Counted from the first letter of the stretch, positions 4,359 through 39,211 are shown. The stretch: DNA of 64,000 nt from an uncultured Myxococcales bacterium (GCA_964460115.1 CAYWPR010000029.1:4131-68130); one strand, 5' to 3'. The notes: generated by a model not told the origin, from the sequence alone. Translations and numbers: made by a program.

Positions 4359-4548
4359 CGTGAGGCTGAGCTGCGATGGCGTATGTCGAAGCTCTCAGGG
4401 TTTCGCGCCGCTTTCGCCTCGAACAAGACTTCTAGCCGCAGAATTTTGCTTGCGTCGAAAAGCGGCGCCGACTGCTCAGCCCGCCGTCGAGAAAGGCGCG
4501 GACAGCGAAGCAGAGCAGTCGTGGCGCTTCCTTGTTGCGGCGTGCGGC

Positions 4549-5151: not shown

Positions 5152-5178
5152 GTTTTCGTACCTTTCTTTCGCTTTTTT

Positions 5179-5829: not shown

Positions 5830-5865
5830 GGCATCTGTCTTATTTGAAATTGAAAATCCTTTTCA

Positions 5866-5893
5866 TTTATATGCATCCGTCGAGCTCTGTCAA
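5866..5893 (-). promoter_or_regulatory. Near-consensus sigma70 promoter for DUF3501-prx. Reads TTGACA-N16/17-TATAAAT on the minus strand.
   Basis: rc of 5888-5893 is ttgaca and rc of 5865-5872 is atataaat. About 30 nt upstream of ATG 5829. Confidence 0.55.
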
Positions 5894-6088
5894 GACGCAA
5901 AACTTTGTCCCAAAGTTGTCCGTAGCGCTGCCAAGTGCGCTTTTTTTCGCAGGAAAATCGAGCGCGAATTCTCAGCCGCAGAATTTTGCTTGCGTCGAAA
6001 AGCGGCGCCGACTGCTCAGCCCGCCGTCGAGAAAGGCGCGGACAGCGAAGCAGAGCAGTCGTGGCGCTTCCTTGTTGCGGCGTGCGGC

Positions 6089-6691
6089 TTACAATTTGCT
6101 GGCGTTTTCTGCCAGATAGCTGGCGACGCCGGATGCGGACGCAGTCATGCCACTGTCTCCCTTACGCCATCCGGCGGGACAGACTTCGCCATTTACTTCA
6201 TGAAACTGCAGCGCATCGACGAGGCGCAAAAGCTCGTCCATATTTCGCCCTAGCGGCAAATCATTGACGATTTGGGATCGGACGATGCCTTCGCGATCAA
6301 TCAGAAAAGTCCCGCGCAGCGCGACACCGTCGTTATGCTCGACTCCATAGGCGCGACAGATTTCGTGCTTCACATCAGCGGCGAGCGTGAAACGGACTTT
6401 GCCGATGCCGCCGCGCTCGACCGGCGTTTCACGCCAGGCGTGGTGTGTAAATTGTGAATCAATCGAGATGCCAATCACCTCGACATTGCGCTTTTGCAAC
6501 GCCTCGACGCGGTTATCGAGCGCGATAAGTTCGGAGGGACAGACAAATGTGAAGTCCAGCGGATAAAAGACAAGTAGACCATACTTGCCGCTAAGGACTT
6601 TGGAGAGATGAAAATCCTGCACCATCGCGCCATCTCCAAGGACGGCCGCGCAGGAGAAATCAGGAGCTTTTTTGCCAACCAAGACCGACAT
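6089..6691 (-). CDS. Typical 2-Cys peroxiredoxin, copy 2 (identical)
   Basis: Identical translation to 4549..5151. Confidence 0.85.
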   Translation of the reverse strand: MSVLVGKKAPDFSCAAVLGDGAMVQDFHLSKVLSGKYGLLVFYPLDFTFVCPSELIALDNRVEALQKRNVEVIGISIDSQFTHHAWRETPVERGGIGKVRFTLAADVKHEICRAYGVEHNDGVALRGTFLIDREGIVRSQIVNDLPLGRNMDELLRLVDALQFHEVNGEVCPAGWRKGDSGMTASASGVASYLAENASKL

Positions 6692-6718
6692 GTTTTCGTA
6701 CCTTTCTTTCGCTTTTTT

Positions 6719-7369
6719 CTATGCCGCTCTGAAACCCGGCAGCATGAACTCGCCTGCAAAATCGCGCTTCTTGTAACCCGGCTGAAAGTCGCGGGCCAGC
6801 TCATTTCGCGTCTCTGGTGTTAGCTCGACGCATTGCAGGGTGTCAAAGTAGTCGATGCCAAGCTGCGCCGTCTTTTGCGGATCGGCAAGTGCAGAGATCG
6901 CTTCGCGATCCAATCGAAAGCCGATGTACTGCACTGCACAGGTCGGATCGTCGTTGGGAAAAAGCGGCTGCGCTTCAATTGTCTGCATTCCAAGCTGCAG
7001 AAAGATAATTCGCGAAGTTCCCGCAAAAAGTTGTTGCGCCAGCTTTTGTCCGGCGCGGCACGGGCCTCCATGCAGCATTAGCGTTGCGGTTAACTCTCCG
7101 CTGCGGGGGATAAGTCGATCATATTCGGCAATTTCCTCGGCAATGCGCTGCGGGCGCAGGGGGCGTTCCATCCAGGCAATTTCTTGAATCTGCGCCAGCA
7201 CCGTCTGACGCGACTCAAATAGCAACGAGACGTTCGGTCCTACTTCTACGCGCCGGCGGCGTTTCAAATCGATAAGCTGGCGACGATAATCAGCACGCAA
7301 GCGCTCGTAGACTTCGGTGGGCAGCAGATCGATGGGCTTTATCGGGGCCGTGGCTCTTTGGTGGCTCAT
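6719..7369 (-). CDS. DUF3501-family protein, copy 2 (identical)
   Basis: Identical translation to 5179..5829. Confidence 0.5.
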   Translation of the reverse strand: MSHQRATAPIKPIDLLPTEVYERLRADYRRQLIDLKRRRRVEVGPNVSLLFESRQTVLAQIQEIAWMERPLRPQRIAEEIAEYDRLIPRSGELTATLMLHGGPCRAGQKLAQQLFAGTSRIIFLQLGMQTIEAQPLFPNDDPTCAVQYIGFRLDREAISALADPQKTAQLGIDYFDTLQCVELTPETRNELARDFQPGYKKRDFAGEFMLPGFRAA

Positions 7370-7383
7370 GGCATCTGTCTTAT

Positions 7384-22496: not shown

Positions 22497-22782
22497 AAGG
22501 GCCTTGTAAGTCTGACTCGCATCTCGATCACAAGGCACGCTAAGTGGGTGTATTTTTTGTGAAACAATTTTTGTAATTTTCCTTAAAAAATATCCTGTAG
22601 AACTATCCCAGCACTTGGAATCGCAGCCTGCTTTCTGGGCGCTTTACCAAGGCGATCGCAGCGCAGCCACCAAACCAGTTGTCGCACTGCCGAGCCTCTA
22701 TCCATGCCATCCCAAGCGGACGGCTGATACGGAAAGCTATGTGTTGCCGTACCAGCAAAACCGTTCAAGAAAGGACTCCATC

Positions 22783-24759
22783 ATGTCTAGCAATGATTCG
22801 ACTGTAACGACCGATTTGGTCTTCTGGGATCCCTCTGGCTATCGCTTCAACAGCGCCACCGATTGGAACCAGTGGCACTACGTCTCGGACGGGCTGGGGG
22901 GGAAAATCGGCATCCGCTTTGGGGTCATGCCCGGCTACGGCACTTTCAATTGGGACAGCTTTGGCGGCAAAGCGCCGGCCGGTTCGATGAGCGACAACTT
23001 CGGAACCACCTCGTTTGGAAAAAACGAGATGACCGGCTTTACGGCGAAAAGCGTCAACGCGGTTCGTATGCAGACAAATGGACAGTTCACCGCGGCGCAA
23101 AACGGTTACACCATCGAGCTCGATTTCTCGCAATACAAAGGTTCCGCCGCTGGTGGTAAGGACGGTGTCGCGGGCGCCAATACTTTCATCGGCGTCAGCG
23201 ATATCTACGCCGGGCTGACCTATGCCAAGACCGTTGTTACCATCACCGGCACTCATGCCGATGGTAGCGCCGCCAGTGCGGCCGGCTGGACGCTGGTCAA
23301 CGGCGGCACTGTCCCTCCCTCGGGCGGCGGCAACCAGCCGAGCGCGCAGCTAAGCCTGCAAAACGGTGTGCTTCAGGGCACAAATAAGCCGGCGCCCGGT
23401 GGGGCTGCTAACTCGATCGATACCGTGATGGGGCTCGTTCGGCTCGACGCGGCCGGCTATAAGACGCTGCATCTGCGTTACGACATCTCTCCGGTCGGCG
23501 GCAATCGCGCGCCGCGCACCGACAATTCGGGGCTGTATGTCGCGACCGCTGTTCCTCACAAAGTGGAGCCGCCCAAAGTGGAGCCGCCCGCAGTCGAACC
23601 GCCCAAAGTGGAGCCGCCCAAGGCCCGTCCGTGCGCTCCAGCAGCGCCGGTTGTTCCCTCGCATACGATTGTCGATGGTCCTGCTCAAAGCCAAGAGAAA
23701 GTCGCGGGCAAAAAGACCAGCTACACTTTTACGACGCGAAATCCCGATGGCTCGATTGCCGGCAAGGGTTGCTTTACCTATGAGACTTCTGCCGATGGCG
23801 GTCCGGCGAAGCTGGCGGCGTTTTACTACAACGACAAGACGATCGGAACCATCGATCAAAGCTACGTCCAGACCTTCCAATTTCAGCAAGACGCCAAGGG
23901 CGGAAATCGCTTTGCGTTCGTCGCGGCCAGCCCGACCGAGCGCCTGTGCAGCCTACACGTCGACACCAGTTTGGCGGCGCAGCTTACCGGCATCGGCGGC
24001 GAGGGACCGCAAGGCTATCACGGCAAGACGATCGACTTTCCCAAACTCGCCGAAGGGACCACGACGACCACGGAAAGCACCACCATTCCGGCCGTCGATC
24101 TGGTGGTGGTCATCGATTCCAGCGTCTCGATGAAGGACGAGGCGGATTCACTAAGCCAAGCTGTCGCGGCCGCCATCGAATCAGCCAAGACCAAATGTCC
24201 TTCTGATCTACGCGTCACCTACCTGGGAATTGAAGGGACGTTTAAGAACACGCGCTTTGATACCACGGTCAAAAACTATCTGGTTGGCACCGCCAAGGCC
24301 GATGAAAGTGCACTGCGCGGACGCAAAAAGGGCAGCGTGGCCGGCGGCGGCGCCCAAGAAGACGGAGCGCGCGCCATCGAAGATGTGACCGGTCATTTTG
24401 ACTGGCGGCAAGACGCCAAGCGCGCCATTTTCTACCTGGGCGATGAGGCCTTCGAGGGCGGCGGCGCGGACATCGACAAAGACGATACCGAAGCTGCCAA
24501 TCGCGCGATTGCGCTGGCCAAGGACAAATCAGTTCGCGTCCACACCTACCTTGGCACAAGTGGCGCTAAAGAGAAGCAGCGCAAAGCCCTGGAAGCGGAA
24601 TACGCCCGCGTAGCCAACGAGACCGGCGGTCAGTCATTCACCTCGCAAGACGCGCTGAATGGCTTTCAGTCGATGCTTGAGAAGGTCATCTGCGGCAGCA
24701 AGCAAAGCCAAAGCACGACGACGGACTTCTGCTGCTGCCAGGAATACGTAGAGAAATAG
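22783..24759 (+). CDS. von Willebrand factor A (vWA) domain protein with internal PKVEPP tandem repeats and no signal peptide
   Basis: MIDAS motif DLVVVIDSSVSM. 15-bp repeats encode (K/A)VEPP x4 at 23567-23626. aagga RBS 8 nt before ATG 22783. AT-rich promoter-like tract 22540-22620. Confidence 0.7.
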   Translation: MSSNDSTVTTDLVFWDPSGYRFNSATDWNQWHYVSDGLGGKIGIRFGVMPGYGTFNWDSFGGKAPAGSMSDNFGTTSFGKNEMTGFTAKSVNAVRMQTNGQFTAAQNGYTIELDFSQYKGSAAGGKDGVAGANTFIGVSDIYAGLTYAKTVVTITGTHADGSAASAAGWTLVNGGTVPPSGGGNQPSAQLSLQNGVLQGTNKPAPGGAANSIDTVMGLVRLDAAGYKTLHLRYDISPVGGNRAPRTDNSGLYVATAVPHKVEPPKVEPPAVEPPKVEPPKARPCAPAAPVVPSHTIVDGPAQSQEKVAGKKTSYTFTTRNPDGSIAGKGCFTYETSADGGPAKLAAFYYNDKTIGTIDQSYVQTFQFQQDAKGGNRFAFVAASPTERLCSLHVDTSLAAQLTGIGGEGPQGYHGKTIDFPKLAEGTTTTTESTTIPAVDLVVVIDSSVSMKDEADSLSQAVAAAIESAKTKCPSDLRVTYLGIEGTFKNTRFDTTVKNYLVGTAKADESALRGRKKGSVAGGGAQEDGARAIEDVTGHFDWRQDAKRAIFYLGDEAFEGGGADIDKDDTEAANRAIALAKDKSVRVHTYLGTSGAKEKQRKALEAEYARVANETGGQSFTSQDALNGFQSMLEKVICGSKQSQSTTTDFCCCQEYVEK

Positions 24760-24932: not shown

Positions 24933-26672
24933 GTGTCGATGTTTCGCTTCGTTGCGCCGCCCATGCGGCCATCTGTTTTGTACATTTTTTTCAGCATCAT
25001 CTTTTTCCCGGCCGTGCTACGGGCTGACGAGCTTGCGCAAAAGCTAGAAGACTTTGAGCATCTGCAGGCCGAACTGGCGGCACCCACCACGGGGACGCAG
25101 CGCCGTCTGGCCATCGCGCGAACCGTTGAAAAAATCGATCGCGAGGCGTTTTCTGCCTGCGCGGTTTATTTGGCCCGACCGCTGAAAAGCTCGCCGCTGA
25201 CCATTCAGCGTTTGATCCATGCCATTTGGGGGCAATATCCCAATCCCGAATATCCGCGCGGTCCGGGCAAAGATCCGCCGATGTGGCTTTTGCGCAAAGA
25301 GCCGGTGCCGCCGCCCCCTTCCTATGTACCGGGAATGCCGCGGCCCAAACGTCCCAAGCCGCAAAAGCCGCACGACCCAGAAGCGGTGGACTGGCTTTTG
25401 GATCTGGCCATGCTGAGTGTCGAACCCGCTTCTGCAAGCGATGCGCCGCCGGATTTTTTGGCGGATCTGCCGCTTGCCGACTTGCGCGCGGCCCGGGCCG
25501 AAGCCCTGATGCGTGTCGCCCTTTTGCATGCTCTGGGCAACGCCGGCAAGCAAGGCGAGCGAGAGGCGGTCCTTGCTGTGTTTCAATTCGCCTTTGTCGC
25601 GGACGGATTGTTTCGCGACGAGTGCGGGCGAACCCTGCGCGGCATGGGCGGCAACGCTGTTCCTACGCTGATACGCATTTACAATGACCGCACTCGCGCC
25701 AACGCCAAAATGCGCCGCTATGCCAGCTACCAGCTTGATCGCATGGATCGGCTGCGCCCGCAAAAGGCCATCGCCGCGGCTCCAGATGATGTCGTCCGCG
25801 CCGACATTCTGCATGCTTACGGCGAAGTGCTGGCGCTTGATGCCGTAGAGGCCGTTTTGGCCCAAGTCGGCTCGCGTTCGCACCGCGTTCGGCGCGAGGC
25901 GCGCTGGGCTTGGTTGCGCTATGTCGATGGCCCGCCGCCCCCGCCCGCCCCCAAGCGCAAGCGCAAATTGCCCGGAGGCAAAGAGGAAGCCGAAGAAAAG
26001 GAAGACTACCTAAACTATCGCGAAATGGCGGGACTGGCTTTGAATCAATCCTACGAGCAGCTCTTTGGCCATGCGCCAAATGGCACGCTGACTCCGCGAC
26101 AAGTCACCGACGAAATTTTTGCCTACTATGATCGGCAGCGGGAACAAGAATTCGAGCAAGTCTTTCAGTCTGCTCAGGCGCACGAGCGCGCCGAGTCGAG
26201 CATTGCCGAGCTCACTTTGGCCGTGAATGACTTCGGGTGGATTTTGGCCAACCAGCCGGATCATCCGCGCCGTGCCGAGATGGCCGCGGCCTTTGCCAAG
26301 CTGGGTGAAGCTCTGGCGTATATGGCCGAAAAGCAGGGGGATTCGTCGAATTTGGCGCGCGCGCTTGGACTTTTGCGGCAGGCATTGATCTTGCGACCCG
26401 ATATCGCGAATTTTGTGCAGATTTGTGAACGCATACACCGGCTCGATGGCGCACAAGCGCGTCAGCGCGGCGGCGATGGCAGCGCCGATTTCGCCTCGGC
26501 CGAAGAATGTCTACAGAAAAACCCGTCTGTACAAAGGCTGGCGGCGGATGTGTATGGCAAACTGCCTCAGCGTTTTGGCCATTGGCGTCTTCTATCCGCC
26601 TTGTGCATCTTGTTTGGGCTTAGCGTGGGGGCGCTGGCTTTGGTTCTTGCTCGTCGAAAGAGCGCGCGCTAG
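24933..26672 (+). CDS. Secreted, membrane-anchored hypothetical protein (signal peptide, helical repeats, PPPPAPKRKRK linker, C-terminal TM helix)
   Basis: N-terminal hydrophobic core VLYIFFSIIFFPAVLRA. C-terminal LLSALCILFGLSVGALALVLA followed by RRKSAR. Confidence 0.5.
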   Translation: MSMFRFVAPPMRPSVLYIFFSIIFFPAVLRADELAQKLEDFEHLQAELAAPTTGTQRRLAIARTVEKIDREAFSACAVYLARPLKSSPLTIQRLIHAIWGQYPNPEYPRGPGKDPPMWLLRKEPVPPPPSYVPGMPRPKRPKPQKPHDPEAVDWLLDLAMLSVEPASASDAPPDFLADLPLADLRAARAEALMRVALLHALGNAGKQGEREAVLAVFQFAFVADGLFRDECGRTLRGMGGNAVPTLIRIYNDRTRANAKMRRYASYQLDRMDRLRPQKAIAAAPDDVVRADILHAYGEVLALDAVEAVLAQVGSRSHRVRREARWAWLRYVDGPPPPPAPKRKRKLPGGKEEAEEKEDYLNYREMAGLALNQSYEQLFGHAPNGTLTPRQVTDEIFAYYDRQREQEFEQVFQSAQAHERAESSIAELTLAVNDFGWILANQPDHPRRAEMAAAFAKLGEALAYMAEKQGDSSNLARALGLLRQALILRPDIANFVQICERIHRLDGAQARQRGGDGSADFASAEECLQKNPSVQRLAADVYGKLPQRFGHWRLLSALCILFGLSVGALALVLARRKSAR

Positions 26673-26681
26673 CCTACGATC

Positions 26682-27206
26682 GTGATGCGCCTTTGGGGCT
26701 CAGCGTGTGCACTTTTGGGGTCTTGTCTTTGGACGGCCTGCTTGGTGCCCGTGTCGCTAGAGCGTGAGGCGCCGACCGATGGGGGGCAAATCTTACAAGT
26801 AACCGGCTCAAACCCGGTCTTTGGCACCCAACTGACTACCGGAAGCCTGGACACTTTTAACTACCAAATCGATGTCATGAGCGACAGCCCTATGGTGTCC
26901 GGGCGACTTTATGTACAGCTTAAAGGAAACTGCTGCGATCTGGATGTCGACAAGGTCGATACCACCCGCTTTCTACAGGATACGACGGCGGTAAATCCGA
27001 CCATGAACAGCCTGGGGCGCTATACCATAGACTTTCGTCAGACTGTGCAGCCGTGTGCTCAAGGCGTATCGGTCTCGATCGTCTACATCGTTCCGGTCCT
27101 GGCCACGGGCGGGTTTGTAGACGACCAATCGACGAGGTTTCGTCCGGAAGGCCTCGGCGTCGTCGATCGCAGCCACTACTGGACCGTGATTTGCGGCGGT
27201 CATTAA
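26682..27206 (+). CDS. Putative lipoprotein (174 aa)
   Basis: Lipobox-like LLGSC. 9 bp after the upstream stop. Confidence 0.5.
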   Translation: MMRLWGSACALLGSCLWTACLVPVSLEREAPTDGGQILQVTGSNPVFGTQLTTGSLDTFNYQIDVMSDSPMVSGRLYVQLKGNCCDLDVDKVDTTRFLQDTTAVNPTMNSLGRYTIDFRQTVQPCAQGVSVSIVYIVPVLATGGFVDDQSTRFRPEGLGVVDRSHYWTVICGGH

Positions 27207-27219
27207 CTGGACTAGCTTA

Positions 27220-28959
27220 ATGATGGGCAAGGTTTTATTTCAAAGGCGGGGGAAGTGGACGCTATGCGTCGCCCTTCTATCGTCCGTCATGTATTGCGGC
27301 GGCGGGACGCCAAGTCCGATCGCCTGCGCCGACATATATTGTCCTCCGCCCTCGAATGACATGGCCTGGGCGGCGCAATTGGCCCCGAGTAGCTCGGCGG
27401 CGACCGACCCGAAAAATCAACTTCTGGCGCAAGAGCAAACTCCGCTGCGTTTTGACGGCGCAGGTTTGGCGCGGCTGCAATTTCGCCCCACCGTGCTGCT
27501 TTCGGGCAGTTTGCTCGACGGTCAAGCCACTCCGCTCGGCGGCGCGCGGGTTATCGCCCGTTTAGAATCGGTCCTGGCCGGGCAGAACCCTTACAGTTTG
27601 GGAACTTTGACCGCTGATTCGCCAGGCGGCGCTTGGACGATGCGAGTTCCCCTGGCCCAGCAGCCAAGCACGCAGCCTTATCACTTATGGGTTGGATTTG
27701 ACGATTCAGCGCGAGCCAGCCTGGCGCCTCCGCTGTGGCAGGAAGAAGCGATCTCGGCCGATACCGCGCTGGCGCTGCGTTTGCGTCCGCCTAGTGAGCT
27801 GGCCGTGGTCAGCGGGCGCATTATCAATGCGCTTGGAGAAGGCGTGAGCAATCTGACCGTGCAGGTGTTAAACAGCAGCGGCCAAATCGTTTCGTCTACG
27901 GCGGTTTCTGAGCCGGCGCCCGGGCTCGGCAAAGGGGCCTATCGGCTGTTCGTAGATCCGGCATTGACCTATGCCAAGGACACCCTCACAGTTGTCGTGC
28001 GACCGGGACCTTTGGTCGATTCGACCACGCCAATTCTGGAAGCCAACTTAGAACCGCAGCATTCGGGTGGGCAGACTCAGGTTGATTTTGCGGTTCCTTC
28101 TCACCGCACGCCGATGGCTTTTCAATTGCCAATACGCGGTGGTATGCCCGGAAGCAGCGCTTTGCCTATCGAGGGGGCTACCGTCCAGGCGCTGGTCATG
28201 CTGGAAGATGCCTCGACGATAAAGCTGGGCAACCGCGCGTATTACCTGGCGACTGGAAAAAGCGATGCGCAGGGCATCGCGCGCTTGTCACTAGTGCCAG
28301 CGCCTAACGGTGGCAGCAATCTTGTTTATCAGGTCACCATCTACAGCCCGTCTTTGCAGCCTTTCGCCAGTCTTTTGCAGACGCCGGTTCAAGTCGGACC
28401 CAATGCTGGTTTACTTGGGGCCGTTCTTTTGCAAAAACGCGCCGAGCTGCGCGGTCGACTGGTCAGCGCGCAGGGGATGCCGGTGGCCGGCGCCGAAGTC
28501 GTGGCCACACCCATTGCCAACACCGAGACGTACTCCAGCCCTCTGAATTCGATGAGCATTGGCGCCGATTTGTCGCAGATAACTACCGACGGCGCTGGTC
28601 GGTTCGCATTGCGGCTTGACGCGGGAGACTACGATCTAGAATTTGTGCCCATTTCGGGTACCGAAGCGCGTTCCTCGCTGGACAATTTGCGAATCAGCGA
28701 TGCCGACATTGAGCTTGGAGATGTCCATTTGCCGCCGCTAAGCTTGGGCACCCTGCAAGTTCTGGGGCCAAATGGCGCGACGGTAGCGGACACCAAAGTA
28801 CGAATCTTTGAACTTCCCGATCTGTCGGCTCGACCCGGAATCGCCTGCACTGCCGAGCTGCCTTGTTCGAAAAACGCCAAGCTGCGCGGCGAGGCATTTA
28901 CCGGCTCAGACGGACTGGCCAAGATTCTGCTTCCCGGCGGACGACCCACCGGTTTCTGA
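27220..28959 (+). CDS. Secreted lipoprotein with repeated carboxypeptidase-regulatory-like / Ig-like beta domains
   Basis: Signal VMYCGGG. Repeats of the form GR(I/L)xxAxGxPVxGAxV. Confidence 0.5.
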   Translation: MMGKVLFQRRGKWTLCVALLSSVMYCGGGTPSPIACADIYCPPPSNDMAWAAQLAPSSSAATDPKNQLLAQEQTPLRFDGAGLARLQFRPTVLLSGSLLDGQATPLGGARVIARLESVLAGQNPYSLGTLTADSPGGAWTMRVPLAQQPSTQPYHLWVGFDDSARASLAPPLWQEEAISADTALALRLRPPSELAVVSGRIINALGEGVSNLTVQVLNSSGQIVSSTAVSEPAPGLGKGAYRLFVDPALTYAKDTLTVVVRPGPLVDSTTPILEANLEPQHSGGQTQVDFAVPSHRTPMAFQLPIRGGMPGSSALPIEGATVQALVMLEDASTIKLGNRAYYLATGKSDAQGIARLSLVPAPNGGSNLVYQVTIYSPSLQPFASLLQTPVQVGPNAGLLGAVLLQKRAELRGRLVSAQGMPVAGAEVVATPIANTETYSSPLNSMSIGADLSQITTDGAGRFALRLDAGDYDLEFVPISGTEARSSLDNLRISDADIELGDVHLPPLSLGTLQVLGPNGATVADTKVRIFELPDLSARPGIACTAELPCSKNAKLRGEAFTGSDGLAKILLPGGRPTGF

Positions 28960-28977
28960 GAATGATAGAATGCCAGG

Positions 28978-29799
28978 ATGCGGCTTTGGCCGATTCTGTG
29001 CGGCGTGAACCTGTGGCTGGTGGCACTGGGGGTGCCGCTTGTTCTGGCTGCGCGCACGGCATCGCCATTTTTATGGGCTATGGCCCCGCTTTCTCCCCTA
29101 TGCCTCGCGATTGGAATGCGCCTGCAAGCTCGAGGCTTTATGCAGGGCCTGCTGCTTTTGGGCGTGCCACTGCTCGCGCTTTTGCCTGGGGCGGATGGCA
29201 CGCTGGCCGATTCGCGACTTTTGCCGCGTCCGGCCGTGGGGTTAAGCGTCGCACTATGTTTGGGCTATCTCATCACTTTGTGCCGTTTTTTGGCGCAGAA
29301 AAACCCGCCCAAAAGTGCGGCGCATTCGCCGCCGGAGCCGCCGCACAAAACGGTCAAAGAGCAAGCAGCGCAGCCCTGGCACTTAGAGCCCTGGCATCCA
29401 AGCGCCAATAGCGAAGCGCCGCGACTTTTTCGCCGCGTTTGGGCCCAGCGGCTGCTTACGCTGTATGCGGTCGCGGTGCCGCTGCTCGTGCTTTATGCGG
29501 TGGACGTGGCGCCGGCGCATCTTTTCGCACTGCGTTCGTACTTTGGTCCGCCGCGCCGAGTGGCAGCCGTGCAGGCGACGCTAAGCTCCGGGCTTTTGCT
29601 GCTGTGCAGCATCCTGTTTTACTTCTGCATCATGTCGCCGCTGGCTTCTTACCTGGATCATCATCGCCAGCTACGCACCGAGCTGCATGGCATGCGCCGG
29701 CAGGCTCGGCGGGGAAGGCCGCGCCGGCGAATTTATGCCTATATGCTTAGCGCGCTAGTTGGCATGATCCTGCTTATCTTTTGGAGCCTGCAAAGATAG
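28978..29799 (+). CDS. Polytopic membrane protein, possibly the DUF4129-position partner of the MoxR module
   Basis: At least 5 hydrophobic helices with an Arg-rich C-terminus. Confidence 0.45.
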   Translation: MRLWPILCGVNLWLVALGVPLVLAARTASPFLWAMAPLSPLCLAIGMRLQARGFMQGLLLLGVPLLALLPGADGTLADSRLLPRPAVGLSVALCLGYLITLCRFLAQKNPPKSAAHSPPEPPHKTVKEQAAQPWHLEPWHPSANSEAPRLFRRVWAQRLLTLYAVAVPLLVLYAVDVAPAHLFALRSYFGPPRRVAAVQATLSSGLLLLCSILFYFCIMSPLASYLDHHRQLRTELHGMRRQARRGRPRRRIYAYMLSALVGMILLIFWSLQR

Positions 29800-30000
29800 A
29801 TGGCATCGCAACGGCTGCCCTACTTTCACATCGTGAGCGCGCTACTGTTTGTGGCCAGCATGATCTTTTTCTGGTACTGCATGGGCTACCTCGCCAAGCG
29901 CGATTATGTGGCGGCGGGTCTGCTATTAATCATCGGGGTTTGTACGCTACGTGCCGGTAGCGAGCTGGCCCGTCTGGCGCTGGCTGAGCGAGACGGCTAG
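29800..30000 (+). CDS. Small two-helix membrane protein (66 aa)
   Basis: Abuts both neighbours with no gap. Hydrophobic. Confidence 0.4.
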   Translation: MASQRLPYFHIVSALLFVASMIFFWYCMGYLAKRDYVAAGLLLIIGVCTLRAGSELARLALAERDG

Positions 30001-31379
30001 ATGGCGAAATTCTTGCCGGTGACTCTGCTTTCGCTTTGTGCATGGCTATGCACCGCAAGGGCGGCCGCGGCGCCTGATGTCTCGCTGGGGCGCGATTTTC
30101 ATATCGGCTATTCCGGCTGGAATGGCCTATCGCGGCTGGCGGGAATGGCCCGCGACCTGGGTTGCGCATTGGAAGTGCGCCGCACGCTCGATTGGTCGGT
30201 GCTCGACGGGCAGGATATACTGCTCGTTCTGCATCCGGAAACCGCGCTCAATTCCGATAGCGCTCTGCGCTACCTTTCGGCCGGCGGCCGAATGATTCTG
30301 GCGGATGATTTTGGCGAAGCCAAAGACCTTTTTGCTCGGCTCAATATCGTTCGTCACACCGGCAAACTTCCCCCCGGCGCGACACTTTATCGCAAGCAAG
30401 CCGCCTTGCCTGTGGCTTTGCCGCAGCGCGGCACGGTCCTTGGTCGGGCGGCGGCGGAACTTTGCGGCAATCATCCCGCGTACTTCAGCAGCAGTTTGCC
30501 CGCGACCTATGTCTTTGCGCCGGGCGCCGCCATGGTGATTGAGGGAACGCTTGGGCATGGCCGCTTTGTGGCCATTTCGGATTCCAGCATTTTCATCAAC
30601 AACATGCTGGAAATCGGCGGCAATCGTGATTTTTTGGCGCGGCTGCTTATCGAGTACTGCCGGCCCGAGCGCGACCGCTTGCTGGTGCTTTACGGACCGT
30701 TTGCCGAGCGCGGAACGCCTCCCGTCGTCCTTGCGGGAGCACCGATTTCCGGCACCGGCGTGGACACCGCAGAGCATCTAAACAGCGCGATGTCCGGGGC
30801 CAATTCGCACATTCAAGAAATGCTGCATCGCGGCAAGTCGGCTGGCATTGAAATCGTCACCCTCTGCGGTCTGCTATTTTGTCTGGGGGCCTTGGCGCTG
30901 CTTTTGCGTTACCTGCCAATGCCCATTGCGCCGCAGGATGAAACTTTCGCGCAACCGCCGCGCCCTCCCGAAACCGGGCTTTTTGCCAGCATCGTGCGCT
31001 ACGCGCAAGGCGCGGGGCAGGCGGTGGATTGGGGCTATGTGTATCCGGCGACGCTTCTTCGCGAAGAAGTACTGTTGCGTATACAGCCTTTTGTCAGCGA
31101 CGGGCGCGAACCATCAACCGAAATCAGCGTGCTTGATTCGCAACAGATTGGCGCAGAGCTTGCCAAAAAAGTCAGTCCGCGCGCCGGCGAGCTGGCCGTG
31201 ATCCTGCTGCGCGAAGTGCGCCGGCTGGATCGCGAGCGGCCAAACCGCACCCATCCAAGCAGCGCGTATATACGTCGCAAAACGCTACACCGCTGGTACG
31301 GCCTCGCGACTGAACTTTTCGCCGAGCTTCGTATTTCCAAATCTCCGGCGCTTTCTTCGCCGCCTCGTGAGACGAGCGT

Positions 31380-31383
<4 letters not shown>
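30001..31383 (+). CDS. DUF4350-family protein (signal peptide plus C-terminal TM; GldG-like fold)
   Basis: Position immediately upstream of MoxR-DUF58 with a 4-bp overlap. Signal peptide and C-terminal TM IVTLCGLLFCLGALALLL. Confidence 0.55.
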
Positions 31384-32381
<998 letters not shown>

Positions 32382-32384
32382 GCA

Positions 32385-34115
32385 GTGACCGCAGGACGCG
32401 GCAAAGCGCCGGCGCTGACTGCGCGCGGCTGCTACGTGCTAGCCTTGGGAATGGTGCTGCTCATCGTTGGAGTGGGCTGCGCCAACTATGGTCTTTGCGC
32501 CGCCGGCTTTTGCGCTGTGACCCTGCTTTTTGCCGCATACGTCGAATTTGCCGGGCGAGCGGCCCTGCTATGGCGGCGCTATCTGGAACTAGTCTGGTGG
32601 CTGCCGCGCGCCGCCAGCCGCGAGGGACTTATAGCCCAGCGGCCTTTTGAGGTGCAGGTGGCGCTGCGCAATCTGAGTCCGCTCAATTTGGGATTTGGCG
32701 AAGTGCGAGTGTTTGGCTCGCGCTGCCTGCTTGTTGAAAGTGTGCTTCTGCCTTTGCCCATGCGCGCGCACAGCCAGGCCACCGGCCAATTGACTTTGCG
32801 CGCTTTGCAAGCCGGGCAGTGGACGATACACGGCGCGGCTGTGCGGCTGTGGGATGCACTGGGCCTGTACACCATTGAAGCGTATTTTCCGTCGGCGCTT
32901 GGATTAAAGGTCCTGCCGCGCCCGCAGCCGCGGATGGCACTTTTGCCATCGCAACTGCACGGTGCCGCTGGCGAAGATCGCATCGGGGCACATACCTTGC
33001 GCCGCCGCGGGCTAGGCGGCGAGCTGCGTGAACTGCGCGAGTATGTACCCGGCGATCCGTTCAAACTTATCGCCTGGCGGGCTAGTGCGCGGGCGCCATT
33101 TGGGCGGCCCCTGGTGCGCGATTTAGAGCGCGAAATGCTGCTTTGCCATTATTTGCTTCTCGACATCGGCGCAACGATGCGAGAAGGGCGGCCGGGACAG
33201 TGGAAGCTCGACCATGCACTGGAGCTGTGCCTGGGCTACGCCGCAACGGCACTTTCTGATGGGGATCGCGTCGGACTAATCACTTTTGATGGAGGAATTT
33301 ACAGCCAGCTTAAGCTTGGCGAAGGCCCGAGCCAGCGTTTGCGGCTGTGTGAACGGCTGCTTGATGTCATGAACGTCGTGGAAGATGGATTCGTGGCGAT
33401 GACCGATGGAGAACTTGTGGCCGCAGTGGCCCGCTATCTGCGTCAGCAGGAGGGAATTGATGCGCGGGTGGCGCGACCGCCGGCGATCGAAGATCAAAAA
33501 GCCTGGGCCCAGATTGCAGTGGCGCCAAGCGGCGCGCTTTACAACATCGCGCAGCTAGTCGATGCCGCCAAAAAAATGCTGGCGATGCATAAATCTGCCA
33601 AATCCGTCGCGCCGGCCGGCTCCGATTTGGCCCTATTGCGGCAGTTGTGCCGTCAGCGCGGCATCGAGCTGCCCTATGGCCAGCGCGCCGCGGCCGGGCG
33701 AACAAAGGGGCTGGCCGAGGCGCTGGAGCTTGCGGCCCAAACCGGAGGGGCTCGAGTGGTGCTTTTCTCCGACCTGCTTGGCTTTGGCGAAGCGCCTAGC
33801 GAAAGCCGCAACGCCGAACCATCGCAACTGACGCGCGCGGTGGCGCTGTGCCGGCGGCGCGGTTTGCAGCTACTATGTATACGGCCGGCGGCGCGGCGCT
33901 ACCTGCCTAAGGAACTGCTCGACGACGCCAACGCTGCGCGGGCCATCGATATTTTTTCCTGGGAACAGGACCGCCAAGAGGCGCATATGCATAGAATGCT
34001 GGCAAGGATCGGCTTTCATGTGATAGCCGTAGGGCCAGAAGATGGTTTGGCTCAAATCTTTGCAAGCGCGGCCCCAAAAAATATTGCTCGGGCGCGCGAA
34101 TTGACCCCATCTTGA
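32385..34115 (+). CDS. DUF58-domain protein (vWA-like fold) with N-terminal TM helices
   Basis: RELREYVPGDPFKLIAWRASAR signature of DUF58. GTG start. Confidence 0.75.
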   Translation: MTAGRGKAPALTARGCYVLALGMVLLIVGVGCANYGLCAAGFCAVTLLFAAYVEFAGRAALLWRRYLELVWWLPRAASREGLIAQRPFEVQVALRNLSPLNLGFGEVRVFGSRCLLVESVLLPLPMRAHSQATGQLTLRALQAGQWTIHGAAVRLWDALGLYTIEAYFPSALGLKVLPRPQPRMALLPSQLHGAAGEDRIGAHTLRRRGLGGELRELREYVPGDPFKLIAWRASARAPFGRPLVRDLEREMLLCHYLLLDIGATMREGRPGQWKLDHALELCLGYAATALSDGDRVGLITFDGGIYSQLKLGEGPSQRLRLCERLLDVMNVVEDGFVAMTDGELVAAVARYLRQQEGIDARVARPPAIEDQKAWAQIAVAPSGALYNIAQLVDAAKKMLAMHKSAKSVAPAGSDLALLRQLCRQRGIELPYGQRAAAGRTKGLAEALELAAQTGGARVVLFSDLLGFGEAPSESRNAEPSQLTRAVALCRRRGLQLLCIRPAARRYLPKELLDDANAARAIDIFSWEQDRQEAHMHRMLARIGFHVIAVGPEDGLAQIFASAAPKNIARARELTPS

Positions 34116-34140
34116 AGAGTCGCTTAAGGAGCTCGAAGAA

Positions 34141-34443
34141 ATGTCCACGATGATCACAGAGGAGTGTATCAACTGCGGAGCCTGTGAGCCCGAATGTCCC
34201 AATGAGGCCATTTCGGAAGGGGAAGACATTTACGTCATCGACCCGAACCTCTGTACCGAGTGCGTCGGTTTTCACGATTACGAGGCCTGTCAGGCTGTTT
34301 GTCCGGTCGAATGCTGCATTCCCAATCCGAACAATGTCGAGTCGGAAGAAGTGCTCTTGAACCGCGCTCGAAAGATACACCCCGACCAGCAGTTTCCCGC
34401 GCTCAATGTTCTGCCGTCGAATCTGTCGCGCTACCGCAAGTAG
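34141..34443 (+). CDS. yfhL: YfhL-type 4Fe-4S dicluster ferredoxin
   Basis: CINCGACEPECPNEAI and CTECVGFHDYEACQAVCPVECC are colinear with E. coli YfhL. Confidence 0.8.
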   Translation: MSTMITEECINCGACEPECPNEAISEGEDIYVIDPNLCTECVGFHDYEACQAVCPVECCIPNPNNVESEEVLLNRARKIHPDQQFPALNVLPSNLSRYRK

Positions 34444-34462: not shown

Positions 34463-35440
34463 CTAGGTCAAAGCGCTGCGGAGGTGCTGGCATTGTTCCT
34501 CGAGCGCTGCAGTTTCGTCGGCCCAGTAGCGATAGCTTGTAAAATCGGGAAAAGTACGCGGAAATGTCGGATCCGCCCAGCGTCGGGCGATCCACGCTGA
34601 AAAATGGATCATGCGCAGCCCGCGCAGCGGCTCAATCAGCCGCAGAGTGCTGGCATCAAAGTGCCGCATTTGCTGATAGCCGCTAAGCAAGACTGTGCGC
34701 TGCCGCAGGGCTTCCGGGTCGCGTCCGCGCACAGCCATCCAAATGTCTTGCACCGCTGGACCGCTCAGCATGTCATCAAAATCGACAAAGATTGGACGAT
34801 CTTCCTGCCACAGCAGGTTGCCCAGGTGGCAATCGCCATGCAAGCGGTGCGAAGGAACATTGGCAAGCGCCGCGGTCGCGGCGGCAATGATGGTGCTGGC
34901 GGCACGCTCGTAGCGCGACTGCATTTGAATGTCGATCATGCCGCTTGCCAAAAGCGTGCCGAGCGCCGTCGCGCCATAGCTTTGCGCGCTAAGCTGCGGG
35001 CGATGGACGGCTTGTTCGTCCGCGGCGACGTTGTGCAGACGGCCTAAAAAGCGCCCGCACTGCAAAAGCTGAGCATCGGAAAGCTCGAGCAGGCTGCGCC
35101 CTCGAACCTTGGGAAAGACCGCGAAAAAGATACCCGGCTGGCCGTCGGTGCTGGCTATAGTGCTACCGTTTTGCAAGGCCAGGGGTGGAATCGCCGGGAC
35201 TTCAGCGTCCCAAAGTTCGGCCAGAAAGCGATGCTCATCGAGGATGGCTTCTTGACTCCAGCGTCCCGGACGATAAAACTTGGCGACGACGTGGCTTTGC
35301 GATTCCAGCTCGATGTCATAGACCCGATTTTCCAGGCTATTTAAGGACAAAGAGCGGCCGGTGGCGCGAACTGAGGGGCCGAGCGCGGCTTCCACTGCAT
35401 CCAAAACTGCCTCGGGAGTCAGCGTGTAGAAATGTTCCAT
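34463..35440 (-). CDS. srkA: Stress response kinase A (SrkA/YihE-like)
   Basis: LNSLENRVYDIELE...VVAKFYRPGRWS and HGDCHLGNLLW motifs are colinear with E. coli SrkA. Start MEHFY chosen. Confidence 0.8.
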   Translation of the reverse strand: MEHFYTLTPEAVLDAVEAALGPSVRATGRSLSLNSLENRVYDIELESQSHVVAKFYRPGRWSQEAILDEHRFLAELWDAEVPAIPPLALQNGSTIASTDGQPGIFFAVFPKVRGRSLLELSDAQLLQCGRFLGRLHNVAADEQAVHRPQLSAQSYGATALGTLLASGMIDIQMQSRYERAASTIIAAATAALANVPSHRLHGDCHLGNLLWQEDRPIFVDFDDMLSGPAVQDIWMAVRGRDPEALRQRTVLLSGYQQMRHFDASTLRLIEPLRGLRMIHFSAWIARRWADPTFPRTFPDFTSYRYWADETAALEEQCQHLRSALT

Positions 35441-35482
35441 AGGCGAGCCAGTCTGACATGTTTCGCGTATTGTTGTTAAAGC

Positions 35483-35911
35483 ATGCAGTCGCCACTTTTT
35501 ATCACCGACGCGCTTTGCATTCCCGGGAGCGAACTTGACTGCGAGTCGGTTCGCTCGTCGGGGCCCGGCGGCCAGAACGTCAACAAAGTGGCCAGCAAAG
35601 TGGAACTGCGCTTCGATTTGCCGATCACCTGCGCGCTGGATGCGGCGACCATCGCGCGACTGCGCATCTTGGCGAAAAATCGCTTGGATGCGCAAGGCCG
35701 GGTTCTAGTCAGCAGCCAGTTGACGCGCGATCGCAGCCGCAATCTGGAAGATGCGCGCCAAAAGCTGCGCGACCTGATTCTGCGGGCGCTAAAGCCGCCT
35801 ACACCGCGCCGTCCGACGTGTCCGACGCGGGCTGCGCAGAAACGGCGCGTGCAAGACAAACGCCAGCATTCCGCGCGCAAGCAGCAGCGCCGTCAGCAAC
35901 TTGACGACTAA
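35483..35911 (+). CDS. arfB: Alternative ribosome-rescue factor ArfB (peptidyl-tRNA hydrolase, GGQ)
   Basis: SGPGGQNVNKV motif with a basic C-terminal tail. 142 aa. Confidence 0.85.
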   Translation: MQSPLFITDALCIPGSELDCESVRSSGPGGQNVNKVASKVELRFDLPITCALDAATIARLRILAKNRLDAQGRVLVSSQLTRDRSRNLEDARQKLRDLILRALKPPTPRRPTCPTRAAQKRRVQDKRQHSARKQQRRQQLDD

Positions 35912-36178: not shown

Positions 36179-36265
36179 GCCTGCCGACTCGATTCGACTT
36201 TTGGCGCCGAATCGCAGCGCGCAGCGGACGTGCAAAACTGCTCGAGATGGTGTAAATCTTGCGCC

Positions 36266-37387
36266 ATGTCGAAAGCTATAGTTGCCGTCGGCCGCGTGAA
36301 TCCCGATGACATTCATGCACAGATTGAAGAACTGTGTGCACTGGGGGGAATGAGCGCGGCCCTGGATCGTCGTTGTCCGACCATCCTGAAGGACAACATT
36401 TCCTGGCACTATCCCTTTCCCGGTGCCAATACCACGCCGTGGCAGCTTGAAGGGACGATTTTGGCGCTGCGCTGCGCGGGCTTTTCCGATCTGTCTTGCG
36501 TGCAAAATAAGACCGTCGTCACCAGTGCCTTCAAAGGCGTAGATCTAAACCACTACCTGCCCATTTTGCGCGCCCATCAGGTGCCGGTTCGCTATAACTT
36601 TCGCTCGGAAGACATGCGCTGGGTGCGCTATGAGCCGCGCGCCAAACTGCGCGTGCTAGACCGCATCTTTCCGGACGGAATCTATTTGCCGGACTATTTC
36701 TTTGGCAAAAATATCGTCCATTTGCCGACGGTCAAATGCCACCTCTATACGACGACGACCGGCGCGATGAAAAACGCATTTGGCGGCCTTTTGGCATCGC
36801 ATTGGCATGCCTCGCATTCCTGGATACACGAGACGCTGGTAGACCTTTTGGCCATTCAAAAGGAAATACACGCCGGCTTGTTTGCCGTCATGGATGGCAC
36901 GACGACGGGAAATGCTCCGGGGCCAAAAACCATGCATCCCGAAGTGCGAAGTGTCGTGCTGACTTCGGCGGATCAGGTGGCGATAGATGCCCTGGCGGCC
37001 AAGATGATGGGTTTTGATCCGATGACCATTCCTTATATACGTATGGCCCACGAAGCCGGACTAGGCATCGGTCGCCCCGAAGAAATAGACGTCGTCGGAG
37101 ATGTCGACATCGCGCGCGAATCGTGGGGATACCATCCGGGCGACAACATGGCAGCGCGGGTTGGCGATGTTTTGGGCTTTGGGTCGCTCAAAGGGGCGCA
37201 GAAGCTATTCTTTCACACGCCGCTTGTGCACTTCTTTGTGGCCGGGTCGGAAGTTTATCACGATTACCTGCGCTGGCCGCTGCGCGACCGTCGGGTGTTT
37301 GAGCATTGGCGCGATCGCACCACCTGGGGCCGACTGTTTCAGCGTTATGCGCAAGGCGCCCAAGCCGCCTCGACGCCGCCCCTGTAA
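36266..37387 (+). CDS. DUF362-domain protein
   Basis: Central TGAMKNAFGG motif resembling DUF362. About 374 aa. Confidence 0.45.
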   Translation: MSKAIVAVGRVNPDDIHAQIEELCALGGMSAALDRRCPTILKDNISWHYPFPGANTTPWQLEGTILALRCAGFSDLSCVQNKTVVTSAFKGVDLNHYLPILRAHQVPVRYNFRSEDMRWVRYEPRAKLRVLDRIFPDGIYLPDYFFGKNIVHLPTVKCHLYTTTTGAMKNAFGGLLASHWHASHSWIHETLVDLLAIQKEIHAGLFAVMDGTTTGNAPGPKTMHPEVRSVVLTSADQVAIDALAAKMMGFDPMTIPYIRMAHEAGLGIGRPEEIDVVGDVDIARESWGYHPGDNMAARVGDVLGFGSLKGAQKLFFHTPLVHFFVAGSEVYHDYLRWPLRDRRVFEHWRDRTTWGRLFQRYAQGAQAASTPPL

Positions 37388-37525: not shown

Positions 37526-39211
37526 ATGACCATAGGAGGTGCTTGCATGGCCGTCCCGTACTCTTGTTTTCGCTCGATTCTGTTCGCGTTTGGTCCGCTT
37601 TGGCTGACGGCGCTGCTTTGGGGCTGTACGCAGTCGCAAGGAGCAGGCATCCCCGATGGTCTGCATGATGCCAATCTGGACCTGGGGCTATCCCGGCCGC
37701 GGATGACGATTCGGCTGGCTCCCCTTGGAAGCTACGCCGCGGGTCCGCTTCCTTATGCACAAGGCGCAGAGATTGTCGCCCATGATCCCGGCAGTCAGCG
37801 TCTCTTTATCGTCAACGTCCACGATGCGGCGCTGGATGTGGTGGACATCCACGACCCCGCAAAGCCGCTGCGTATCACGGCCATCGATCTAAAACCCTTT
37901 GGCGCTCATGCCAATAGCGTTGCTGTGCATGGCGGCATCGTGGCTGTGGCCATTGAAGGCCACGCCAAAACCGATGCGGGGACGGTGGCATTTTTCAAAA
38001 GTGATGGAACTTTGCAAAGCAGCGTCCATGTCGGGGCTTTGCCCGATATGCTGACTTTTACGCGCAACGGCCGCAAAGTGCTGGTCGCCTGTGAGGGCGA
38101 GCCGAGCGACGACTACACGGTGGATCCACCGGGCGGCGTCAGCGTCATTGATGTTTCGCGCGGCGTGGACAAGCTGACCCAAGCAGACGTAATAGATGCC
38201 GATCTAAGCCGAGTGCTCGCTATGCTCGATACGCGGGTGCGCATTTTCGGTCCGCGAGCGACGCCGCGTATGGATCTAGAGCCCGAGTACATCGCGGTGG
38301 CGGCTGATTCCAAAACCGCCTGGGTGACCTTTCAAGAGAACAATGCCATGGGCATTCTGGATGTGGAGGCGGGGATTTTTACCGCGCTTGTACCGCTTGG
38401 TTACAAGGATCACAACCTGCCTGGTCAGGGGCTAGATGCCAGCGATCGGGACGGCGGAATTCACATCAAAAACTGGCCGCTGCGCGGGCTTTATCTACCC
38501 GATGCAATTGCCAGCTTCGAGGCGCAAGGACAGACCTACCTTGTCACTGCCAACGAAGGCGACAGCCGTGATTACGCGGGATTCAGCGAGGAAGTGCGCG
38601 TCTCTAGCCTGACTCTAGATGCGACCGCCTTTCCGGACGCCGCAATGCTCAAGAAGGACGCGGCGCTCGGGCGGATGCGCGTGACCAAGACCCTGGGCGA
38701 TATCGACAAAGACGGCGACTATGACGAACTATATTCCTTTGGCAGCCGGTCCTTTGCGATATGGGATGCCGCGGGAACTCTGGTCTTTGACAGCGGCGAT
38801 GGCTTCGAGCGGGTGATTGCCGAGGCGATGCCTGCCAACTTTAACGCCGATGAGCTTAGCAACGACCCGGATCGGCGCAGTCCCAGCAAAGGTCCTGAAC
38901 CTGAAACCGTGACCGTAGGACGCGCTTACGGACGAACGTACGCTTTTATTGGAGTCGAGCGCATTGGCGGCATCCTGGTCTATGAGCTGTCCGACCCGCG
39001 GCATCCGGAATTTGTGCAGTACATCAACAATCGCGACTTTACGCAGGACCCTAGTTCCGGAGCGGCCCGCGACCTCTCTCCAGAAGGCGTGATCTTCATT
39101 GCAGGCGAGGAGAGTCCCAGCAAGCGGCCTTTGCTGGTGGTTGCCAATGAAGTCAGCGGAACGACCACTGTGTACGAAATCGCCCCAATTTTCGATCCGC
39201 GCGGCTATTAA
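37526..39211 (+). CDS. Choice-of-anchor I family lipoprotein (beta-propeller, phytase/alkaline-phosphatase-like)
   Basis: Lipobox LWGC. Repeated blade-like segments. C-terminal VANEVSGTTTVYEI. Confidence 0.55.
   Translation: MTIGGACMAVPYSCFRSILFAFGPLWLTALLWGCTQSQGAGIPDGLHDANLDLGLSRPRMTIRLAPLGSYAAGPLPYAQGAEIVAHDPGSQRLFIVNVHDAALDVVDIHDPAKPLRITAIDLKPFGAHANSVAVHGGIVAVAIEGHAKTDAGTVAFFKSDGTLQSSVHVGALPDMLTFTRNGRKVLVACEGEPSDDYTVDPPGGVSVIDVSRGVDKLTQADVIDADLSRVLAMLDTRVRIFGPRATPRMDLEPEYIAVAADSKTAWVTFQENNAMGILDVEAGIFTALVPLGYKDHNLPGQGLDASDRDGGIHIKNWPLRGLYLPDAIASFEAQGQTYLVTANEGDSRDYAGFSEEVRVSSLTLDATAFPDAAMLKKDAALGRMRVTKTLGDIDKDGDYDELYSFGSRSFAIWDAAGTLVFDSGDGFERVIAEAMPANFNADELSNDPDRRSPSKGPEPETVTVGRAYGRTYAFIGVERIGGILVYELSDPRHPEFVQYINNRDFTQDPSSGAARDLSPEGVIFIAGEESPSKRPLLVVANEVSGTTTVYEIAPIFDPRGY

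Follow-up and report, generated by a model that had tools for sequence, protein, structure and literature searches.

In the present study we analysed a stretch of 64,000 nucleotides from an uncultured Myxococcales bacterium (GCA_964460115.1, CAYWPR010000029.1:4131-68130), hereafter the window, and more particularly nine consecutive genes of its + strand, g1 to g9 (positions 24933-34443). An initial annotation had described them as a single envelope operon, in which secreted proteins and lipoproteins would be coupled to a DUF4350-MoxR-DUF58 trio and to a YfhL ferredoxin. Our comparison across genomes suggests that the nine genes are instead three independent units lying side by side, a reading to which we give a probability of about 0.85. 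The first unit, g1-g3, is an envelope cassette limited to a narrow lineage of Polyangia. The second, g4-g8, is a five-gene module found across the Myxococcota (Polyangia, Kofleriaceae/Haliangiales) and represents, in this clade, a variant of the DUF4350-MoxR-DUF58 system, which is known but uncharacterised. The third is the YfhL ferredoxin gene g9, which is syntenic in a part of the clade only. The true conserved extension of the trio is thus made of g4 and g5, two membrane protein genes that the initial annotation had listed without stressing them.

To sample the trio, we scanned a single genome from each GTDB species with a pattern and obtained 80 loci, which were compared by tblastn with g0-g9 and, for g4 and g5, by profile hidden Markov models. 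We observed that g4 and g5 lie upstream of the DUF4350 gene in 59 of the 64 Myxococcota loci with at least 3 kb of upstream sequence. Wherever the contig reaches far enough, most of the approximately 80 loci retain the order g6-g7-g8, a few loci being truncated; L047 gives no match to g7 or g8 although downstream sequence is present. At L089 the operon is flanked by a divergent upstream gene and by a downstream gene on the opposite strand, and it therefore begins with g4 and ends with g8. By contrast, g1, g2 or g3 was found near the trio in none of the 41 species-level loci whose upstream sequence reaches 6 kb or more (0/41), and g9 follows the DUF58 gene in just 9 of 62 loci. The operon as first proposed thus holds for g4-g8 and not for g1-g3 or g9, and the co-conservation of the lipoprotein genes with the trio, on which the initial annotation had itself staked its proposal, was not observed. 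Indeed, tight spacing alone had overstated the functional unit, and neither the lipoprotein cassette nor the ferredoxin should be assumed to be a part of the machine.

All nine genes were recovered by calling of open reading frames (ORFs), with unchanged coordinates (Table 1). The successive intergenic gaps from g1 to g9 are 9, 13, 18, 0, 0, -4, 3 and 25 bp, in agreement with the spacing of 0-25 bp or 4-bp overlap reported before. Domains were called by profile searches (Pfam, NCBIfam) and transmembrane (TM) segments from hydropathy; the domains initially assigned (DUF4350, MoxR AAA_3, DUF58, YfhL ferredoxin and CarboxypepD_reg) were all found again, and the profile searches assigned no family to g1, g2, g4 and g5 of the window. 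The block is not the product of a mis-assembly, since an independent Logan assembly (L091) contains g2-g7 at 100% identity; the gene order of the window is also that of L006, L092 and L093. The window has a GC content of about 59%, at which gene calling based on third codon positions gave no discrimination, and scans of the window for tRNA and Rfam families found nothing. In the lineage of the window, g1-g3 and g9 are probably co-transcribed with g4-g8, though they are not obligate partners of the module.

Table 1. Genes of the nine-gene block, with positions in the window and assigned products.
Gene	Position	Strand	Product and assignment
g1	24933-26672	+	579 aa; exported helical protein (TPR/HEAT-like), from ORF and hydropathy; lineage-specific cassette
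g2	26682-27206	+	174-aa small probable lipoprotein, no family; lineage-specific cassette
g3	27220-28959	+	579-aa probable lipoprotein; CarboxypepD_reg (transthyretin-like beta-sandwich) domains; lineage-specific cassette
g4	28978-29799	+	273-aa polytopic inner-membrane protein; first gene of the conserved module
g5	29800-30000	+	66-aa microprotein, two-TM hairpin; module member
g6	30001-31383	+	460-aa bitopic DUF4350 protein; Pfam DUF4350 65.5 bits
g7	31380-32381	+	333-aa MoxR-type AAA+ ATPase; overlaps g6 by 4 bp
g8	32385-34115	+	576-aa DUF58 protein; von Willebrand factor A (vWA)-like domain with degenerate metal ion-dependent adhesion site (MIDAS) and long insertion
g9	34141-34443	+	100-aa YfhL-family 2x[4Fe-4S] ferredoxin; NF033683 111 bits (cut-off 86)

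The distribution of the cassette g1-g3 is not that of the module. The product of g1, which begins at 24939 and has 577 aa in the public gene call, shows by hydropathy a signal-like segment at its N-terminus and a TM helix at its C-terminus. Its homologs number more than 200 in metagenome-assembled genomes (MAGs) of Polyangia/Myxococcales, some of them with HEAT_2 or TPR Pfam matches. In L001-L005, g1 homologs with 44-60% identity have no MoxR, DUF58 or DUF4350 neighbour; two of these genomes do possess the trio, on a different contig in the assembly JAXLYE (contig 1, against contig 6 for g1) and at a distance of about 50 kb from g1 on contig PNAM01000017. Among the loci compared, g3 homologs are restricted to L006, L090, L092 and L093, and g2 was found in the first three of these and is missing from L093. 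A metagenome scan with g3 alone detected no relatives, and one with a two-sequence g3 alignment gave L090 as its sole relative. At L090, g1-g2-g3 are followed by convergent unrelated genes, with no g4-g8. A cassette that exists without the module, together with g1 genes unlinked to the trio, speaks against g1-g3 being an obligate part of the operon. Upstream of the g1 homolog, L005 and L090 both carry SpoIIE and STAS (partner-switching) genes, and this context hints at a different ancestral setting for g1.

The lipoprotein signals of the cassette were compared with the standard lipobox [LVI][ASTVI][GAS]C at the end of the signal peptide. For g2, motif reading gives WTAC in the window and the canonical LSGC in the L006 homolog, the presumed lipidated cysteine, C20, being conserved. 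For g3, we read VMYC in the window, APGC in L006 and SAGC (standard) in L090, with Cys26 conserved between the window and L006. Since the lipobox of the window is non-canonical, though its cysteine is conserved, g3 is likely but not certain to be a lipoprotein. Its CarboxypepD_reg match scores 39.8 bits (cut-off 32.3) and covers residues 410-477 in two stretches.

At the nine loci where it follows g8, g9 lies at most 1.2 kb downstream, at distances of 93-818 bp; it has this position at 7 of the 14 loci of the closer clade. At the loci where it follows g8, its identity (79-87%) exceeds that of g4, g5, g6 and g8 and is comparable to that of g7. The translation contains the motifs CxxCxxCxxxCP and CxxCx8CxxxCP, as expected for a YfhL dicluster ferredoxin, and the gene is preceded by a strong Shine-Dalgarno sequence, AAGGAG.

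Concerning the two membrane partners of the trio, g4 shows six hydrophobic segments by hydropathy, and the helices of its AlphaFold2 (AF2) model suggest that it probably has seven TM segments. By the positive-inside rule its N-terminus would be in and its C-terminus out, which fits the Arg-rich loops. In the alignment, N11, W13 and R149 are invariant and R152, R153 and G246 nearly so. The model, made from a 10-sequence alignment, is all-helical, with a mean predicted local distance difference test score (pLDDT) of 52.5 and a predicted template modelling score (pTM) of 0.27. A Pfam scan of 13 g4 homologs with E up to 10 gave noise only (T2SSM, E 0.011), and sequence profiles detected none of DUF4129, SpoIIM, RDD and Transglut_core in g4 or its homologs.

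The start of g5 comes immediately after the stop of g4, and that of g6 immediately after the stop of g5. The g5 product is unusually well conserved: across loci it keeps a length of 62-66 aa and the motifs RRDYVAA and E[LM]ARLAL..RD, and it is 45-70% identical even at loci where g6 is only about 33% identical. It forms a small family, for which 1.84 billion representatives yielded 43 clusters at 50% identity, almost all of 60-100 aa. In the representative library, a 352-aa ORF, P0235, has a g5-like C-terminus and a hydrophobic, polytopic-looking N-terminal part, which appears g4-like by eye rather than from an alignment. The 0-bp g4-g5 and g5-g6 junctions, the 4-bp g6-g7 overlap and P0235 all argue for the coherence of g4-g8. 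We also observed that, at L086:7331-8503, the profile matches of g4 and g5 share one stop-free frame; this case and P0235 are possible natural g4-g5 fusions or read-through gene calls.

The g6 product consists of a signal peptide or hydrophobic N-terminus, an alpha/beta domain (residues ~30-245), a TM helix (~283-304; 283-301 by hydropathy) and a helical tail of 150 aa. Its AF2 model has a pLDDT of 84 overall and above 90 for residues 30-245. The best PDB matches of this domain are the N-terminal domain of IFT52 (5fms_B, Foldseek E 6e-5), the trimerisation domains of GH42 and ThuA-like proteins, with a sequence identity of only about 14-16% in the comparison with GldG and the GIFT domain of IFT52. 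These GIFT/ThuA-like structural matches agree with the link between DUF4350 and GldG previously obtained by HHpred (PMC5898192). The GIFT-like domain would be periplasmic, and MoxR and the bulk of the DUF58 protein cytoplasmic.

The g7 product is a MoxR-type AAA+ protein with an AAA_3 core (216.6 bits) and AAA_lid_2 (84.4 bits), and among solved structures 2r44 comes closest to it (E 1e-78). The ATPase motifs (Walker A, Walker B, sensor) are intact; GxPGxAKT (Walker A), GDE (Walker B) and TQNP are invariant in 72 homologs. For g8, we obtained 46.4 bits with DUF58, weak matches to VWA_2 and VWA_CoxE, and no relative among PDB sequences. Hydropathy reveals a hydrophobic block at its N-terminus, which we read as a two-helix TM hairpin, the remainder being presumably cytoplasmic. 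Its MIDAS retains D260 in 61 of 62 homologs, but Gly replaces the first Ser in 53 of the 62, and at the second position we counted G 25 times, T 24 times and S 9 times. The motif is therefore DxGx[GTS] and not the DxSxS of a canonical functional MIDAS.

In sister lineages the module is fuller. In Kofleriaceae/Haliangiales (about 50 loci) and in L019, L021 and L023, the 1.0-1.5 kb between g5 and g6 contain two genes, x1 and x2 (e.g. L089:8767-10004); the L089 version is a seven-gene operon. The x1 product is a lipoprotein with a parvulin peptidyl-prolyl isomerase (PPIase) domain, with Rotamase_2 scores of 48.9 and 34.1 bits (cut-off 27) and a visible FGYHII motif. The x2 product, of about 120 aa, is a Roadblock/LC7 protein (Pfam Robl_LC7, 24.0 bits, cut-off 23), and its profile matches M. 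xanthus MglC (PDB 7ct3) over the full length with an E of 1.3e-11. The clade of the window has lost x1 and x2, and no copy was found elsewhere in the window. With these two genes, the fuller system would therefore span the membrane, with the PPIase and the GIFT domain on its periplasmic side, g4 and g5 within it, and Roadblock, MoxR, DUF58 and the g6 tail in the cytoplasm. The sister operons also unite relatives of dynein-type AAA+ (MoxR), of dynein LC7 (Roadblock) and of IFT52 (GIFT).

Two other loci have distinct neighbours. In a Bradymonadales locus that lacks g4 and g5, L036:8106-9980 encodes a 624-aa membrane-anchored CarboxypepD_reg protein (69.8 bits), whose gene shares 4 bp with the start of the DUF4350 gene. 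This protein and g3 were considered as orthologs and this was rejected (BLASTP E 0.047); the former is a non-homologous analogue. In L087, a c-type cytochrome gene lies 41 bp upstream of g4.

Starting from the observed gene content, domain identities, co-conservation, g6 fold and intact ATPase motif set, we propose a mechanism for g4-g8. We hold it tentatively, at somewhat worse than even odds; architecture and mechanism blended into one explanation stand at about even. MoxR-vWA pairs act as chaperones or remodellers (PMC9976466; PMC8926400). Here g4 (about 7 TM), g5 (2 TM) and the single TM helix of g6 would form an inner-membrane complex. On the cytoplasmic face, a MoxR hexamer with the membrane-tethered DUF58 protein as vWA adaptor may drive an ATP-dependent remodelling of the g6 tail or of the g4 loops. 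On the other face, g6 would engage exported proteins or glycans through its periplasmic GIFT/GldG-like domain, controlled in this way and joined in most relatives by the parvulin PPIase lipoprotein. The module could thus be an ATP-coupled device for envelope assembly, folding or quality control. Its topology, the formation of the complex, the direction of the energy flow and the substrates are all conditional in this scheme. The proposal of the initial annotation, a MoxR-driven remodelling of exported substrates, survives in part: the topology would suit an envelope machine and the PPIase lipoprotein of the sister operons goes in the same direction, but the link to g1-g3 does not stand.

Several points weigh against the composite architecture or against this mechanism. 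The nine-gene order, although confined to one subclade, is found in four members of it, namely the window and L006 with all nine genes, and L092 and L093, the latter without g2; in the three relatives identity is 51-67% and the g3-g4 gaps are 21-60 bp, so a lineage-specific functional coupling of g1-g3 to the module is possible within this subclade. The synteny between the window and L006 is wider, including a spermine-synthase-like gene and one for thioredoxin-TPR_20, and adjacency at this divergence is therefore weak evidence of coupling, since it may be inherited synteny. Simple promoter and terminator scans were uninformative, with no signal over shuffles, and co-transcription is therefore deduced from spacing. 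As for the mechanism, the quality of the g4 model is too low for fold assignment or fold search, and the cytoplasmic tail of g6 has no significant relative among Pfam and PDB profiles; complex formation is therefore something that we purely infer. In addition, the degenerate MIDAS of g8 differs from that of the well-studied MoxR-vWA pairs, and the PPIase gene, the sole component pointing directly to protein folding, is absent from the clade of the window.

The repeated order of genes leads to the alternative in which all nine form one functional operon, g1-g3 being substrates or periplasmic partners of the MoxR machine and the ferredoxin a redox partner. No gap exceeds 25 bp, and the Bradymonadales protein that abuts DUF4350, the Ig-like membrane or S-layer proteins beside the archaeal module (PMC5898192) and the FN3 protein encoded with MoxR and DUF58 genes in the Bifidobacterium PFNA cluster (PMC8430577) all provide parallels for g3. 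We nevertheless consider this alternative unlikely: the cassette is absent from 41 other loci, exists without the module in L090, lacks g2 in L093 and has an unlinked g1 in genomes carrying both; the synteny of the window with L006 extends beyond the block; the ferredoxin is missing at 53 of 62 loci; and g3 is not homologous to the Bradymonadales protein. The ferredoxin that follows g8 at nine loci and the cytochrome gene of L087 could also be the clients of a MoxR-vWA maturation factor for a redox protein or metalloprotein, as in NorQ/NorD, CoxD/CoxE and CbbQ/CbbO, all the more so as MoxR-vWA pairs insert metals or activate enzymes (PMC9976466). This is improbable, given that the MIDAS is degenerate in g8 homologs, that neither redox neighbour shows conservation (we met the cytochrome gene at one locus) and that such a role would not account for the membrane and periplasmic partners, namely g4, g5, the GIFT domain and the PPIase lipoprotein.

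The fold of g6, related to GldG and IFT52, and the MglC-like Roadblock protein encoded inside the operon in most relatives suggest a role in surface motility, polarity or polysaccharides, in which an MglC-like polarity factor would be coupled to the GldG-like domain in the periplasm; MglC regulates the motility reversals of M. xanthus (PMC4719450). We give this role only a slim chance, because the MglC-like gene has been lost from the clade of the window, no GldA/GldF ATP-binding cassette (ABC) transporter genes were seen among the genes and ORFs inspected by the module (window, L006, L087-L089), and other domains of GIFT-like fold (GH42) simply mediate oligomerisation. We had also considered that mglC of M. 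xanthus itself might belong to such an operon; this was rejected from the literature, MXAN_5770 adjoining the pil cluster and not a MoxR operon, which also speaks against this role. Since g8 is membrane-tethered, the module might act in protein extraction or degradation close to the membrane, as Zhang and Aravind proposed for MoxR-vWA-transglutaminase operons, where MoxR would unwind substrates brought by the vWA protein at the membrane (PMC3495828). However, sequence profiles detected no transglutaminase or other peptidase domain in g1-g9, nor any transglutaminase-like domain in g4, its homologs or the g6 tail, and the likelihood of this role is very small. Finally, the view of the module as a MoxR-vWA system for conflict or defence against phages is close to refuted. 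The secondary match of g7 to bpMoxR (43 bits) is far below its AAA_3 score (216 bits), the beta-propeller and effector domains are absent, PADLOC gave only noise (E ~1e-3) with no defence family, and the gene order is conserved over about 80 species-level loci, unlike that of patchy defence islands. We thus retain the composite architecture, with g4-g8 as its conserved module.

This module can be compared with known systems. For archaeal arCOG01314 (DUF4350)-MoxR-vWA genes, Makarova, Galperin and Koonin predicted in 2015 a secretion or membrane-remodelling complex (PMC5898192); the literature thus contains a prediction only, and the trio was rightly called known but functionally unassigned in the initial annotation. 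The block of the window has the features of this system, namely a DUF4350 protein with signal peptide and TM helix and adjacent MoxR and DUF58 genes in the same orientation. It also shares with it a large GldG-like extracytoplasmic domain in the DUF4350 protein, MoxR of COG0714, a vWA/DUF58 protein and additional membrane proteins nearby, and we regard g4-g8 as a bacterial counterpart of the predicted archaeal complex. An accompanying Ig-like envelope protein is a possible further common point: the CarboxypepD_reg protein g3 is present in the window but at none of the 41 other loci, and a non-homologous one abuts DUF4350 in L036. The Myxococcota system differs by its partners, g4 and g5 and mostly also PPIase and MglC-like proteins, whereas the archaeal ones are S-layer/Ig-like proteins with 2-4 TM; by the 150-aa cytoplasmic tail of g6; and by a DUF58 protein anchored through a TM hairpin, its bulk read as cytoplasmic, whereas the archaeal protein is 'likely secreted' (PMC5898192).

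With NorQ/NorD, CbbQ/CbbO and RavA/ViaA, the module shares an AAA+ hexamer with a vWA adaptor and intact ATPase motifs; these systems have defined clients and a vWA/MIDAS interaction, whereas here the MIDAS is degenerate, no client gene is conserved and the partners are those of the membrane and periplasm. The periplasmic domain of g6 belongs to the same fold class as those of GldG and of IFT52 (GIFT). Unlike GldG, g6 is paired with MoxR and DUF58, and the likeness stops at the fold, with no partner ABC transporter genes among the called genes inspected in the window, L006 and L087-L089. Bat (Bacteroides aerotolerance) operons, of the type MoxR-DUF58-VWA-TPR, occur in Bacteroidota, spirochaetes and Francisella, and are tied to envelope or stress phenotypes rather than to one enzyme. 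Like them, the module has MoxR and then DUF58 with inner-membrane partners, but it carries a DUF4350/GIFT protein instead of the BatA/BatB-type VWA membrane proteins and the BatC TPR protein. In the window, g8 is followed by the ferredoxin gene and then by a convergent APH-family kinase gene (34463-35695), and no BatA/B-like VWA protein is encoded in the block. BB0172/BB0173 of Borrelia are an example of the Bat type (PMC5700661). The Bifidobacterium PFNA cluster (pkb2-fn3-MoxR-DUF58-tgm; PMC8430577) also combines MoxR-DUF58 with an Ig-like (FN3) envelope protein, comparable to g3 or to the Bradymonadales protein. The kinase and the transglutaminase of PFNA are absent here, and DUF4350, g4 and g5 are absent from PFNA.

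Elsewhere in the window, we observed a perfect (100% identical) tandem duplication at 4434-7520, with a period of 1540 bp, each copy of which carries on the - strand the genes of a peroxiredoxin (AhpC/TSA, 200 aa) and of a DUF3501 protein (216 aa). It is either a very recent event or an artefact of MAG assembly. Its end is overlapped by the 5' end of a gene (7384-12507, +) whose 1707-aa product is a multidomain signalling protein, in which kinase-like, AAA_16, GAF and SpoIIE (PP2C phosphatase) domains are combined. Another ORF (22615-24759, +; at most 714 aa), located 173 bp upstream of g1, contains proline-rich repeats of the PPKVEPP type and a C-terminal vWA-like region with an intact DxSxS (VVVIDSSVSM), with no obvious signal peptide; none of the fetched loci has a homolog of it near the module. 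Downstream of the block are genes for a DUF362 protein (36230-37387, +) and for a protein with a choice-of-anchor I domain (37526-39211, +; 486 bits).

A bolder reading, which we consider distinctly unlikely, would make of g4-g8 a new trans-membrane energy coupler. In this case the MoxR/DUF58 motor would work on the tail of the GIFT protein within a 7-TM + 2-TM scaffold and thereby drive envelope proteins to fold or to assemble in a periplasm devoid of ATP, and the fuller ancestral operon, with its PPIase and MglC-like genes, would tie the module to cell polarity and unite prokaryotic relatives of three ciliary components.

What is new in our analysis is the constant association of g4 and g5 with the trio and, beyond the window, the addition of PPIase and MglC-like genes; we found none of this described in the searchable literature. 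The DUF4350-MoxR-DUF58 system is widespread and has no assigned function, and its Myxococcota version now has a defined set of partners. As these partners would lie on both faces of the inner membrane, they provide testable hypotheses on how a cytoplasmic AAA+ protein may act on the envelope.

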